The notes: generated by a model from the sequence alone, not told the origin. 64,000 nt of DNA from an uncultured Acidobacteriota bacterium (GCA_964534795.1 CAZHQK010000014.1:13444-77443), one strand, 5' to 3'; counted from the first letter of the stretch, positions 258 through 54,243 are shown. A program made the numbers and translations.

Positions 258-706
258 CCGCGCGGGACCGGTGTCCATGTGGCCCCGGAGGGGCCCTGAG
301 CTGGTAGCCGGGGGTGAGCCGCAGGCGGGGCATCCGAAATCGCAGCGATGCGGTTCGGGGCGATCATCCGGCCCCGGAGGGGCCCTGAGCCGGTAGCCGG
401 GGGTGAGCCGCAGGCGAGGCATCCGAAATCGACGCGATGCGGTTCGGGGCGATCATCCAGCCCCGGAGGGGCCCTGAGCTGGTAGCCGGGGGTGAGCCGC
501 AGGCGAACCCCCGGAAAGGATCGTAGCGATCAGGCGAGCCCCGGAGGGCCGACAGAATTCGATTGGGTGCGGTTTTTCCGCCGGCCCTTCAGGGCTTGTC
601 GCATGCCGTCACGTTTTCTCCAGGTTCGCTTCCGCTCACCTGGAGCTACCAGCTTCCGTCCCTTCGGGACGGACATTTCCCGCGCGCCGCGGCAGACCTA
701 CCTGCG
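258..706 (+). repeat. Structured intergenic repeat, copy A: two 89-bp tandem head modules (281-369, 370-458), then a full unit (459-706) ending in the GC-palindromic tail ...cgcgcgccgcggcagacctacc
   Basis: Head ggccccggaggggccctgagc(c/t)ggtagccgggggtgagccgcaggcg occurs three times at an 89-bp period. The same roughly 250-bp unit recurs at four other loci in the window. Confidence 0.85.
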
Positions 707-2548: not shown

Positions 2549-3160
2549 ATGAACAGGCTTTGGCCGGCGGTTATTCTCGGATGCTGCATGCCCGGGCGCC
2601 TGTGCGCTCAGAACATCACCGATACGTCCAACGGGACAATGAGCGCGGTGATCAGCTTCACGGTGACGCCGGGCACTTCGAACACCCCGGTGGCGCGCAC
2701 GGTCAGTTTCCGCATACGCTGCGCCGACGCTTCCGGCTACCACGTGGCCGCCTCGGCGAGTTACGTGGCCGTCCCGGGCGCGCCGGCCGACGGCGGGGCG
2801 ACGATCGCGGCATCCGATATAGGCGTGGGCATCACCTCGGTCGACACCTCGAGCTCGCAGGTCATCAAACCGAGAACCGATACCATCGCCTACGGCTTCG
2901 CTTACGATCCCGGCGCGGTGAGCGCCCCCAACGGTCTCACGCCGTACGCGGGGCGCGCCGCGGGGCAGGCAACCGTGGCCGACCTCGTCGGCAGCCCGGG
3001 CACCACGATACTGAGCGGCGACCGTATCGCCGCCAGCGAGAACCCGAGCGATCCCGACAACTACATCACGGTGACCGTGACCTTCGCCTTGCTGCCCCAG
3101 TACTTCACCCCCGGCACCTTCACGGTCGCCCTGACCCTGAGCATCATGAACGGACCCTAG
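2549..3160 (+). CDS. Secreted pilin-like subunit 1 (SCPU/Csu-type sigma-fimbrial subunit candidate)
   Basis: 203 aa. Signal peptide MNRLWPAVILGCCMPGRLCAQ. Thr/Ser/Gly-rich. C-terminal motif LLPQYFTPGTFTVALTLSI shared with the next gene (paralogue). The first gene of the operon. Confidence 0.6.
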   Translation: MNRLWPAVILGCCMPGRLCAQNITDTSNGTMSAVISFTVTPGTSNTPVARTVSFRIRCADASGYHVAASASYVAVPGAPADGGATIAASDIGVGITSVDTSSSQVIKPRTDTIAYGFAYDPGAVSAPNGLTPYAGRAAGQATVADLVGSPGTTILSGDRIAASENPSDPDNYITVTVTFALLPQYFTPGTFTVALTLSIMNGP

Positions 3161-3193
3161 GCAATGGAAACCCATCTGGAGGAGATAGCCACC

Positions 3194-3844
3194 ATGAAAA
3201 CCGGCAAGCTGTTTTTGTTCGGCGCGCTTGTCCTCATGTTCGCCGGCGCGGCGCAGGCGCAGACATCGGGGACGATCACCATCACGGGAACGGATCCGGA
3301 GGCCTTTTCGATCACCAACACCTCGGACGCCACCCTGAGCGCCACCATCATTCTCGGCACCCTGACGCCCGCCACCGGCGGCACGCTGACGAGCGGGACC
3401 GCCCAGATACGCCTGCGCAGCAACAAGGCCTACCAGCTGACTGCGCAGGCCACGGCGCTCAGCTTCACCGGTGCCGGAGCGGCCGACGGCGGCGCAAGCA
3501 TTGCGCTGAGCGATTTCGGTTTCGGCATCGCCTCGATCGATGCCAGCGGCGCCAACGTCGCCAACGCAACCGGCCATACGGTGGTGTCGCTCTTCAACTA
3601 CGATCCGCGCAGCGTTTCCGTGACCAACGGCCTGACCCCGTTCGTTCCCAGCACCCACGGGACGCTCGACGACATCACCACGAGCACGCAGATCCTCAGC
3701 GGGCCGCGCATCAGCGCGCAGGGGAATATCTCGACCGACAACAACTTCATCCTGGTGACGCTGGCGGTCGCCACGCTGCCGCAGTATTTCACGCCCAACT
3801 CGAGCTTCTCCACCACCGTCACCCTGACGATCGCTTCGCAATGA
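3194..3844 (+). CDS. Secreted pilin-like subunit 2 (paralogue of 2549-3160)
   Basis: 216 aa. GGAGGA RBS 11 nt upstream of ATG 3194. Signal peptide MKTGKLFLFGALVLMFAGAAQAQ. C-terminal LPQYFTPNSSFSTTVTLTIA motif. Its stop overlaps the next start (ATGA). Confidence 0.6.
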   Translation: MKTGKLFLFGALVLMFAGAAQAQTSGTITITGTDPEAFSITNTSDATLSATIILGTLTPATGGTLTSGTAQIRLRSNKAYQLTAQATALSFTGAGAADGGASIALSDFGFGIASIDASGANVANATGHTVVSLFNYDPRSVSVTNGLTPFVPSTHGTLDDITTSTQILSGPRISAQGNISTDNNFILVTLAVATLPQYFTPNSSFSTTVTLTIASQ

Positions 3845-7640: not shown

Positions 7641-7967
7641 ACTGGTCCGCCGCGCCCGTCGGTCCGCCGCGCACGTAGGTCCGCCGCGGCCCTGCGCGCG
7701 GGAAATGTCCGTCCCGGAGGGACGGAAGCTGGTAGCTCCAGGTGAGCGGAAGCGAACCTGGAGGAAAGGCAGGGCATGCGACAAGCCCCGAAGGGCCGGC
7801 AGAAAGATACGTCAGGAAGCCCGGTCTGCCGGCCCTCCGGGGCTGCGACGATCGATACGCCCCTTTCCGGGGGTTCGCCTGCGGCTCACCCCCGGCTACC
7901 GGCTCAGGGCCCCTCCGGGGCCGGATGGTAGGCCCGCCGCTTTGCCCGACTCGACGGCGGGCCAGGT
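7641..7967 (-). repeat. Structured intergenic repeat, copy B (reverse orientation), flanked by a triplicated ggtccgccgcg short direct repeat (7645-7690)
   Basis: The reverse complement of 7672-7922 aligns along its full length to the 35302-35545 unit (head ggccccggaggggccctgagccggtagccgggggtgagccgcaggcgaacccccggaaagg ... tail ccgcggcggacctac). Confidence 0.85.
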
Positions 7968-35196: not shown

Positions 35197-35251
35197 GGTT
35201 CACTCCGTAGCTGTGTCGTTCCTTCAGGGCTCTCATGGTCGCTCGCTGTAG

Positions 35252-35652
35252 GTCCCGCGAGCCGCGCGGGACCGGTGACTTTAAGCAATAAGCTCACATT
35301 GGGCCCCGGCAGGGGCCCTGAGCCGGTAGCCGGGGGTGAGCCGCAGGCGAACCCCCGGAAAGGTGCGTATCGATCAGGCGAGCCCCGGAGGGCCGGCAGA
35401 CCGAGGTCTCCGATATTTCCATCTGCCGGCCCTTCGGGGCTTGTCGCATGCCGTCCCTTTTCTCCAGGTTCGCTCCGCTCACCTGGAGCTACCAGCTTCC
35501 GTCCCTCCGGGACGGACATTTCCCGCGCGCCGCGGCGCGGCGGACCTACCAGACGGCCCCGGAAGGGGCCGCCGAACGGGTAGCCGGGGGTGAGCGGAGC
35601 GAACCCCCGGAGAGCGCAGGTGAGCGCATCGAGCCCCGGAGGGCCGGCAGAG
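35252..35652 (+). repeat. Structured intergenic repeat, copy C: leading GC-palindrome hairpin, one full roughly 245-bp unit, then a second partial head-plus-stem unit
   Basis: gtcccgcgagccgcgcgggac hairpin. Head ggccccggcaggggccctgagccggtagccgggggtgagccgcaggcgaacccccggaaagg. An 18-bp helix ccccggagggccggcaga/tctgccggcccttcgggg. Tail ...gggacggacatttcccgcgcgccgcggcgcggcggacctacca. The second head ggccccggaaggggcc...gagccccggagggccggcaga follows. Confidence 0.85.
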
Positions 35653-40365: not shown

Positions 40366-40767
40366 AGCAACCGCTGAAATCCGGCGGTCGGCAACGAGTC
40401 GGCAGAACGTCGTCCTTCCCTCAGGATTTCTCCGGTCGCCGCTCGCCGTGAGGCTCCGCAGACAGCGGTGCGGAGCATTCGCTGGCTGGTTTTTCACGGT
40501 CGCGGGCACGGATGGCGTCACTGCTTCTCGGGTCGGTCTCGCCGGGCGCCGGCCTGGGATCGCAGGCCGGCGAGTCTGCCTCTCTTCCTGAAGCTCAGCC
40601 TTGAAGTCTTGTTTGCGCCGGTCCGGCACGCCGTGCCGGACGCAGGCCTGTGGGCCAATGCTTTCGATCCCGCGCGGCACGCGGAATCTGCCCTTGCGCC
40701 TCGGGGGTCTCGGTGACAGGCCGCTCAGGCCCGTGACTCCGCGTGAAGGATCCGGCGGAAGATGCGC

Positions 40768-41715: not shown

Positions 41716-41850
41716 ATTCGCCTCCATTCGGGACCGGATCGCATCACGGATCACGACATAATACCTGCCGGACCCCCCGGTTGTCTGCACCTGAGAGCAC
41801 TTCTTCTCGTCGAGTAGATGGTCCGCCGCGGAGCGGCGGACATAGCGTTC

Positions 41851-42068
41851 GGCCCCGGAAGGGGCCTTGAGCCGGTAGCCGGGGGTGAGCCGAAGGCGAA
41901 CCCCGAGGGCTGGCGGACTGAGGTTTCTGATATCTTCTTCTGCCGGCCCTTCGGGGCTTGTCGCATGCGGCTCCCTTTTCTCCAGGTTCGCTGCGCTCAC
42001 CTGGAGCTACCAGCTTCCGTCCCTCCGGGACGGACATTTCCCGCGCGCCGCGGCGCGGCGGACCAACC
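41851..42068 (+). repeat. Structured intergenic repeat, copy D, preceded by the gtccgccgcggagcggcggac hairpin at 41821-41841
   Basis: ggccccggaaggggccttgagccggtagccgggggtgagccgaaggcgaacccc...ttctgccggcccttcggggcttgtcgcatgcggctcccttttctccaggttcgctgcgctcacctggagctaccagcttccgtccctccgggacggacatttcccgcgcgccgcggcgcggcggacc. Confidence 0.85.
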
Positions 42069-53906: not shown

Positions 53907-54175
53907 GTCCGCCGGTCCGCCGCGCCGCGGCGGACCTACCATCCGGCCCCGGCAGGGGCCCTGAGCCGGTAGCCGGGGGTGAGCCGCAGGCGAACCCCCG
54001 GAAAGGCGGGCATGAATCAACCAAGCCCCGGAGGGCCGGCAGAATTTGAATTGGTGCGGTCTTTCTGTCGGCCCTTCGGGGCTTCGCGGGCGCGATGCCC
54101 TTTTCTCCGGGCTCGCTCGCGCTCGCCCGGAGCTATTGTCTTTGCGTGCCCCCGGCACGCCGTGCCGGACCTGGG
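53907..54175 (+). repeat. Structured intergenic repeat, copy E (hairpin ggtccgccgcgccgcggcggacc, head, G-U-variant 18-bp helix, divergent 3' module with palindrome cccggcacgccgtgccggac)
   Basis: ggccccggcaggggccctgagccggtagccgggggtgagccgcaggcgaacccccggaaagg...agccccggagggccggcaga...tctgtcggcccttcggggcttcg. Confidence 0.8.
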
Positions 54176-54243
54176 TGCGCGGAAGCGAACCCGGACAAGA
54201 AAGGCACCCGGGGATGTGCGGGAACAGACGGCGGTGAGAGGCC

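Follow-up and report, generated by a model that had tools for sequence, protein, structure and literature searches.

The question raised by the 64,000-nt stretch of an uncultured Acidobacteriota bacterium analyzed here (GCA_964534795.1, CAZHQK010000014.1:13444-77443; hereafter the window) is what kind of element recurs at five of its intergenic sites, one of them around positions 35252-35652. A preliminary description had reported five copies of a hairpin-rich unit of ~250 bp and had proposed either a mobile element resembling repetitive extragenic palindromes (REPs) or miniature inverted-repeat transposable elements (MITEs), or a multi-copy structured noncoding RNA (ncRNA) not assignable to a known class. 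We consider it quite probable that the five sites are clusters of a genome-wide, non-autonomous family of GTAG-tagged palindromic repeats of the REP, REPIN (paired REPs) or BIME (bacterial interspersed mosaic element) kind. The family itself is undescribed, whereas its kind, selfish or structural DNA, is already known and is not a new RNA gene.

The presence of the repeat at all five reported places was confirmed by a shared 17-mer, by repeat families, and by alignment. The 17-mer GGTAGCCGGGGGTGAGC occurs exactly eight times in the window, always within the five sites; about 0.37 matches would be expected by chance even at three mismatches, and eight were reached in none of 100 shuffled sequences. 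Similarly, CACCTGGAGCTACCAGC gave four exact matches and one match with three mismatches in the window, against 0.14 expected. A repeat search of the window connected 258-706, 7641-7967, 35252-35652, 41824-42068, and 53907-54175 (clusters A to E) through direct and inverted repeat families, and the five sites lined up in a five-way alignment, in which all of the hairpins listed in the preliminary description could be read. The five sites thus stood, but the copies of a single ~250-bp unit did not: the sites are clusters, and the unit is an inverted dimer of ~100-nt monomers, of which 10 complete and 3 partial ones were counted in the window. Cluster A contains two further 89-nt partial units in tandem and cluster C a third monomer (35548-35651), all omitted earlier, and cluster D, previously started at 41851, begins at about 41820 with a leading palindrome. 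The GC-rich palindrome said to lead each unit is indeed GTCCGCCGCG..CGCGGCGGAC in clusters D and E, but it is GTCCCGCG..CGCGGGAC in clusters A and C. All five clusters are intergenic, between convergent (A and B), tandem (C and E), or divergent (D) genes, and the earlier view was upheld that the element is non-coding and multi-copy, takes either orientation, has varied gene surroundings, and is not a cis-regulatory leader.

The left and right halves of the unit are reverse-complement homologues over ~100 nt. Each monomer consists of a 6-bp hairpin a (GGCCCC-GGA-GGGGCC or CGTCCC-GGA-GGGACG), a 12-nt linker with an unpaired GGTAG at its end, an imperfect palindrome b composed of an 8-bp stem, a GA/GA internal loop and an inner stem-loop of 2-3 bp, and finally AAAGG with ~15 variable nt followed by the arm AGCCCCGRAGGGCCGGCAGA, which is rich in GC. 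The ~225-nt unit consists of two monomers arranged tail to tail with a spacer of 20-21 nt in all window copies (a loop of 21-30 nt had been given earlier); its GTAG tags point outward, an arrangement called the "HH" dimer in the REP literature (PMC3733652). The paired arms of the two monomers are the long helix previously described as 18 bp, and GGTAG/CTACC pairing closes a three-hairpin junction on either strand. Stem b is CCGGGGGT/ACCCCCGG in L monomers and CTCCAGGT/ACCTGGAG, CTCCGGGT/ACCCGGAG, or CTCCGGGC/GCCCGGAG in R monomers, each difference from L being compensated. L was paired with a non-L monomer in 40 of 42 distinct dimers, and no LL dimer was found among the 42. GGTAG lies directly 5' of stem b in all eight L-type copies of the window, and its T-A-G is invariant among the window monomers. 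The 89-nt partial monomers of cluster A comprise hairpin a, GGTAG, and the 5' arm of hairpin b, followed by GGGGCATCCGAAATCG..GATGCGGTTCGGGGCGATCAT, a variant module. The monomers are flanked and connected by short palindromes that carry the same tag, namely GTAG+GTCCGCCGCG..CGCGGCGGAC (9-10-bp stems and 1-3-nt loops), GTAG+GTCCCGCG..CGCGGGAC, and GTCCGGCAC..GTGCCGGAC+CTAC. Small palindromes of the GTAG+GTCC type were matched 10 times, where 1.3 matches would be expected, and 8 of the 10 fell inside clusters; CTAC comes after GCGGCGGAC in 60 of about 100 cases.

The AtpA protein encoded in the window is identical to one present in NCBI, JGI, and ENA, and the named relatives of that protein come from "Acidobacteria bacterium" MAGs; TonB-type receptors with carboxypeptidase-regulatory domains agree with this phylum. 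The same strain is represented in JGI 3300010284 and ENA ERZ27245602. The repeat family extends far beyond the window. A 22-mer search of the JGI metagenomes returned 90 stretches with a match, three samples supplying most of them; a hidden Markov model of the monomer gave 282 matches in 111 clusters over 754 kb, and a covariance model detected 222 monomers (E <= 1e-10) in 740 kb, made up of metagenome contigs that represent the same or closely related strains. Local duplication, which the preliminary description had named as the alternative to be checked, was thus answered by the 90 stretches and 222 matches in favor of a genome-wide distribution, and near-identical copies at ~100 intergenic sites indicate recent genome-wide spread. 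Orientation maps of the 111 clusters showed single monomers, tail-to-tail dimers, abutting head-to-head pairs, and alternating ><>< arrays; partial units of 89 nt or full units of 145 nt also formed tandem arrays. Such a mixture is the mosaic pattern known from BIMEs. By crude gene calls, none of 47 non-redundant clusters lay within a coding-like open reading frame (ORF), and the flanking genes were tandem in 20, convergent in 9, and divergent in 7 cases, which is near random expectation.

The content of the arrays differs between strains at the same site. At the orthologous site of cluster D, 310 nt separate the anchors in the window versus 484 nt in strain L052 (L followed by three digits denotes a sampled locus), where an intact L monomer, another R subtype, and extra flanking palindromes lie between flanks that are ~97-98% identical to those of the window. 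A second orthologous site reads > < < in L083 versus > < > < in L012, with flanks ~90-92% identical, and short-read contigs of the same strain end inside repeats (L001, L094, and many others). The L-type exact 25-mer had no match in 185,579 species genomes, so the L-type repeat is lineage-specific, and a plasmid collection contained no DNA match to the repeat. Because relatives at 87-91% AtpA identity carry no copy in ~65 kb, the family is dispensable and patchy, and patchy distribution is usual for REP families (PMC3733652).

Although the element had been considered not assignable to a known class, its anatomy fits the GTAG-REP superfamily (PMC3733652). GTAG REPs have stems of 5-13 bp and loops of 2-20 nt, occur as singles, HH or TT dimers and clusters, and form subfamilies with complementary stem changes (PMC3733652); the stem and loop sizes of hairpin b are within these ranges. 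Like the REPs and BIMEs of E. coli, the REPINs of Pseudomonas, and the SMAGs of Stenotrophomonas, the window family has an unpaired GTAG at the foot of an imperfect GC-rich palindrome, is high in copy number, strictly extragenic and patchy among relatives, and occurs as singles, as inverted dimers with the tags outside, and in tandem and alternating clusters. It also shares with them two repeat types that alternate in opposite orientation, subfamilies with compensatory stems, and its role as a specific target of IS110-family elements. The REP-like option of the preliminary description is therefore the one favored by the GTAG tag, inverted dimers, arrays, compensatory subfamilies, genome-wide spread, and IS110 targeting. 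The differences are a conserved, structured 12-14-nt loop, a dimer of ~225 nt in contrast to ~100 nt for REPINs, dimer halves that carry different, compensated stems, and a family to which no gene for a REP-associated tyrosine transposase (RAYT) has been linked. In addition, GTAG REPs are given for Proteobacteria, Cyanobacteria, Chloroflexi, and the PVC group, and Acidobacteriota is not among these phyla (PMC3733652). The composite monomer of the family is unusually large, and its dimers follow an L/R heterodimer rule.

Several observations weigh against this assignment. The monomer, with ~100 nt and three hairpins, is larger and more complex than the classical REP of 20-40 nt. Neither a tblastn search with RayT of E. 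coli as the query nor a scan for HUH...YxxNP found a RAYT or other Y1 transposase gene in ~0.86 Mb, a minority of the genome, consisting of ~0.75 Mb of window and metagenome loci and ~0.11 Mb of loci from other metagenome-assembled genomes (MAGs); the RayT probe was 100% identical to annotated rayT and detects RAYT homologues of Chloroflexota and cyanobacteria in the plasmid collection at E about 1e-32. A pair of empty and filled sites was sought among the fetched loci and none was found, so that transposition is something we infer. Moreover, a 37-nt core is kept between classes of Acidobacteriota, which is more than is usual for REP families, and a host or RNA function is possible.

The relatives that carry this core were found with a degenerate core pattern after the exact 25-mer had given none. 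Among the matches listed were copies in one Acidobacteriota MAG, two Pyrinomonadaceae MAGs, and four contigs of one Thermoanaerobaculia MAG. According to the model, each of these MAGs holds diverged tail-to-tail dimers, including second monomers that the pattern did not pick. Common to the aligned dimers are TGGTAGCCAGTGGTGAGCG(A)AAGCGAACC(A/T)CTGGAAAA, an equally distant hairpin a, and an arm rich in GC, in loci of 47-62% GC. It is conceivable, though we would put our weight elsewhere, that the ~100-nt monomer, with a core that would be the Acido-Lenti-1 motif of Rfam read from the opposite strand, is an ancient Acidobacteriota-wide element whose 37-nt GTAG-hairpin core has been kept as the substrate of a domesticated, vertically inherited Y1 transposase or because it also works as a structured RNA. 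If such an ancient element exists, an Rfam "small RNA" (sRNA), Acido-Lenti-1, would become a REP-type DNA element, and the guide-RNA systems of IS110/IS1111 would have a natural conserved landing site in Acidobacteriota; if the Y1 transposase is domesticated, a partnership of the REPIN-RAYT type would exist in a phylum where none has been described.

A structured RNA was weighed by folding and covariation analysis. The dimer fold, with its three hairpins closed by GGTAG/CTACC, was far more stable than shuffled sequences both for the + strand as DNA (z = -7.3) and for the - strand as RNA (z = -6.7). Among 133 distinct monomers, 98.9% of the cells were paired versus 85.2% in shuffled alignments and at most 58% with the partner column slid; hairpin b was paired in 99.8% of the cells, and both-side changes were found in 9 of the 16 pairs of hairpins a and b, in an alignment that is fitted to the model and in which the double changes stem from few subfamily splits. 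An alignment of 39 distinct dimers contained double changes at only 3 pairs, because the copies are 85% identical (mean column identity). In the across-species alignment, 94.2% of the cells were paired versus 79.1% when shuffled, and 9 of 16 pairs covaried. Hairpin formation is thus constrained, and the compensatory change noted earlier is real; it stems from few subfamily splits, however, and fits folded RNA or single-stranded DNA equally. The argument formerly drawn from G-U pairing proved weak. Most G-T pairs of the 39-dimer alignment are at two positions inherited as L/R differences, and a column with a frequent A-C mismatch (CCGACAGA vs TCTGCCGG) favors the opposite strand, where the pair would be G-T. 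The asymmetry of wobble pairs was therefore uninformative as a test for RNA, since these two positions dominate the G-T counts and the A-C column opposes them.

Rfam searches at gathering thresholds, covering the window and 18 loci of its organism, returned nothing relevant. At permissive E-values, only generic hairpin matches (F6 and miRNA precursors) and sub-threshold matches to Acido-Lenti-1 (RF01687) appeared; for the latter, the best score of the window was 16.2 bits and that of a relative from another MAG (L100) was 29.1 bits, below the gathering score of 37. Nevertheless, by-eye comparison with the seed alignment showed that the reverse strand of the monomer has the Acido-Lenti-1 architecture, with a GC-rich hairpin, CUA(Y), a linker that is 12 nt long in both, and a 5-6-bp hairpin with a 3-nt loop, in that order. 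A loop with GCUCAC, the reverse complement of GTGAGC, is a further likeness, as are multiple, often tandem copies and the occurrence in Acidobacteria including Koribacter versatilis. In contrast, the loop of the first hairpin has 4 nt in the motif and 12-14 nt in the window repeat, the motif spans only ~46 of the ~100 nt and leaves the arm, the dimer, and the arrays uncovered, and Rfam classes it as a candidate sRNA and not as a DNA repeat. Weinberg et al. graded Acido-Lenti-1 as a probable RNA, and Lentisphaera, Koribacter, and Rhodopirellula contribute multiple, tandem copies to its seed (PMC2864571). The seed sequences (PMC2864571, supplement 183) often lie in tandem at 74-200 nt spacing with CUA(Y) beside the palindrome, and in many seed stems there is an A-C mismatch, which the opposite strand would show as G-U. 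To judge from these sequences, Acido-Lenti-1 resembles the other strand of a GTAG-type REP.

We regard it as unlikely that the repeat is a multi-copy structured ncRNA, an enlarged relative of Acido-Lenti-1 kept as an RNA gene or module. Such an RNA would account for compensatory stem changes both within the genome and between classes of Acidobacteria, for a reverse strand laid out like a motif rated probable RNA (PMC2864571), for a fold far more stable than shuffles, and for a core kept in genomes of 47% to 66% GC. However, the copies comprise partial units, singles, dimers, and tandem or alternating arrays in both orientations and all gene contexts, and array content at the same site varies between related strains. 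Both strands fold equally well, and the wobble and mismatch positions favor neither; no Rfam family was matched at threshold, and the Acido-Lenti-1 seed, being itself multi-copy and tandem with CUA(Y) by the palindrome, is REP-like. Accordingly, the ncRNA option of the preliminary description is disfavored.

The insertions of IS110-family insertion sequences (ISs) bear on what uses the repeat and point independently to REP biology. Two IS110-family transposase genes (PF01548 + PF02371) are located between clusters, and one of the elements splits a monomer as GGTAG|ACATAATGGAGTGACCGGTC...GACCGGTCACTCCATATC|AGCCGGGGG. Its end follows GGTAG exactly in three different monomers (Table 1), and AG/CT is found at both junctions of the complete copy. 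The element encodes a 377-aa transposase. Its inverted repeats (ATGGAGTGACCGGTC) are subterminal, and ~450 nt downstream of the gene are non-coding; both features are reported for the IS1111 group. Other members of the IS110 family, IS621, ISPpu9, ISPpu10, and ISPa11, have fixed insertion positions in REPs around a CT core (PMC1525189; PMC11208160). They are alike in the use of one fixed repeat position and of CT/AG at both junctions, here the AG of GGTAG, although this likeness tells what uses the repeat and not what the repeat is. The non-coding part of the element contains an imperfect hairpin of ~27 bp (L075 8978-9053), the loop and 3' arm of which, GAGCCCGTAG...CCGGGGG, resemble by eye the target flanks GAGCCGGTAG|CCGGGGG; the hairpin may be part of a guide (bridge or seek) RNA. 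A second, different IS110-family transposase of 450 aa (L038 287-1639) lies between two clusters, and the dimer to its left (41-257; region L038 1-300) has on its two sides a long inverted repeat that is richer in AT (AAATTGCTTGATCTTTAACACAGGACCTGCCGGGGCCGCG... and its complement).

The repeats might instead be immobile DNA sites maintained by the host, bound by a nucleoid protein, gyrase, or another protein or serving as docking sites for RNA-guided IS110 recombinases, with arrays produced only by local duplication. In favor of such sites, the GTAG junction serves an IS110-family element as a target three times, exact to the base pair. REPs and BIMEs of E. coli bind host proteins, and the conservation of the core across classes would agree with such sites. 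We consider this explanation improbable, since ~100 different intergenic sites hold near-identical copies, with 85% mean column identity among dimers, and since the relatives at 87-91% AtpA identity lack a copy in ~65 kb. Slightly less probable still is a MITE, that is, a deletion derivative of an autonomous IS moved by its transposase (DDE or other) through terminal inverted repeats (TIRs) with target-site duplications: the unit is indeed a non-coding, multi-copy inverted repeat of two ~100-nt halves and IS transposases adjoin some clusters, but only IS110-family elements were found beside clusters in the sampled DNA, lone monomers and head-to-tail arrays are not products of MITE transposition, and GTAG-tagged palindromes are the REP signature. 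Of the two IS110-family elements, the only ISs found in the sampled DNA, the one with defined ends (ACATAATGGAGTGACCGGTC...) is unrelated to the monomer, and it splits monomers and does not have them as its borders. As for target-site duplications, the unit ends are blurred by the flanking small palindromes. Anatomy alone led us to drop a CRISPR, attC sites, coding repeats, and a leader or riboswitch.

For a GTAG-tagged repeat family of the REP kind, the most likely mechanism would be spread through single-stranded DNA intermediates, in which a single-copy HUH/Y1 transposase of the RAYT or TIRYT type would cut and join the repeats in trans, reading the GTAG tag and the foot of the hairpin. The arrays grow, shrink, and reshuffle at fixed intergenic sites, presumably remodeled by recombination or replication slippage. 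The RAYT-like transposases of a distinct acidobacterial group are flanked by long inverted repeats, and one of them, ORF1552 of K. versatilis, belongs to a repeat family (PMC3733652). The TIR families of such TIRYTs resemble the window family, by description only, in being acidobacterial, in forming dimers and clusters, and in their RAYT-like transposases; they differ in that they flank Y1 transposases, none of which was found near any window-family copy examined. A TIRYT-like Y1 transposase appears the most plausible kind of mobilizing enzyme. Two RAYT candidates beside elements were false leads and turned out to be EF-P and an oxidoreductase. Where the hairpins are co-transcribed, they may act as 3'-end or stability elements of mRNA, as REPs do.

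Assignment to this kind would extend GTAG-REP/BIME-type repeats to Acidobacteriota, a phylum not named as a carrier in PMC3733652. Given the REP-like anatomy of Acido-Lenti-1, an Rfam candidate sRNA, matches to its model may be DNA repeats and not RNA genes. In this organism, the repeats break short-read assemblies and yield spurious ORFs, and they are places where strain variation and site-specific IS110 insertion concentrate. In the annotation of the window, ORFs overlapping the five clusters should not count as genes. The clusters and their parts are collected in Table 1.

Table 1. Repeat clusters, monomers, and associated features; positions refer to the window unless a locus (L followed by three digits) is named
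Feature	Position	Strand	Content
Cluster A	258-706	+	Remnant of GTCCCGCG-type palindrome, two tandem 89-nt partial units, one L+R inverted dimer, GTAG+GTCC-type tail
A, two tandem 89-nt partial monomers	276-453	+	Repeat family 93% identical
A, L-type monomer	452-556	+	Stem b CCGGGGGT/ACCCCCGG; covariance model 104.3 bits
A, R-type monomer	577-678	-	Stem b CTCCAGGT/ACCTGGAG; covariance model 106.3 bits
A, tail	688-701		Reverse complement GTAGGTCTGCCGCG, GTAG+GTCC type
Cluster B	7641-7967	-	L+R inverted dimer and three GCGGCGGACC half-sites
B, R-type monomer	7703-7803	+	Covariance model 106.5 bits
B, L-type monomer	7825-7929	-	Covariance model 101.5 bits
Cluster C	35248-35652	+	GTAG+GTCCCGCG..CGCGGGAC palindrome, L+R dimer, GCGGCGGAC+CTAC, terminal third L-like monomer
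C, L-type monomer	35295-35400	+	Covariance model 99.7 bits
C, R-type monomer	35422-35521	-	Covariance model 106 bits
C, third monomer	35548-35651	+	L stem, R-like short loop GAGCGGAGCGA; 80.4 bits
Isolated perfect small palindrome	40621-40641		GTCCGGCACGCCGTGCCGGAC; outside the five sites
Cluster D	41820-42068	+	GTCCGCCGCGGAGCGGCGGAC palindrome, deleted L monomer, R monomer, GCGGCGGACC tail
D, L monomer	41851-41907		32-nt internal deletion
D, R monomer	41939-42039	-	
Cluster E	53907-54175	+	GTCCGCCGCG..CGCGGCGGAC+CTAC palindrome, L monomer, divergent R monomer
E, L monomer	53938-54043		
E, divergent R monomer	54064-54166	-	Doubly compensated stem CTCCGGGC/GCCCGGAG, hairpin GCGTGCC..GGCACGC
IS110-family element, ~1.6 kb	L075 8648-10283		Both junctions; exactly after GGTAG
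Same IS110-family end abutting GGTAG	L030 5388		Different upstream context
Same IS110-family end abutting GGTAG	L087, ~2049 from end	-	Different upstream context

Some further features were noted at and around the clusters. The three GCGGCGGACC half-sites of cluster B lie at 7644-7688 with a spacing of 17 nt. Weak covariance-model matches at 54138-54235 (+ strand, 25 bits) and 35212-35324 (- strand, 15 bits) edge clusters E and C, respectively, and may be degraded monomers or flanking small palindromes. A sixth cluster of the family, with at least three monomers, is located in the same strain just past the right end of the window, downstream of atpC (L093 11613-12064). In another locus, a tRNA gene (Rfam, 54 bits; L014 252-324) is ~180 nt from a repeat cluster at 506-825. 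Palindromes of the GTCCGGCACGCCGTGCCGGAC type, followed by CTAC, sit ahead of single monomers in other loci. The 97%-identical strain L052 carries a 772-bp cassette (L052 2703-3474) with genes for a PIN-domain toxin and a PhdYeFM antitoxin, both identified by Pfam; the cassette is absent at 40582/40583 of the window; its insertion point is ~40 nt upstream of the isolated palindrome at 40621-40641. Finally, three diverged direct repeats of 61 nt (62-72% identical) are found at 2784-3540 within a long ORF region of the window; they are probably a repeated protein segment not linked to the GTAG-tagged repeat family.

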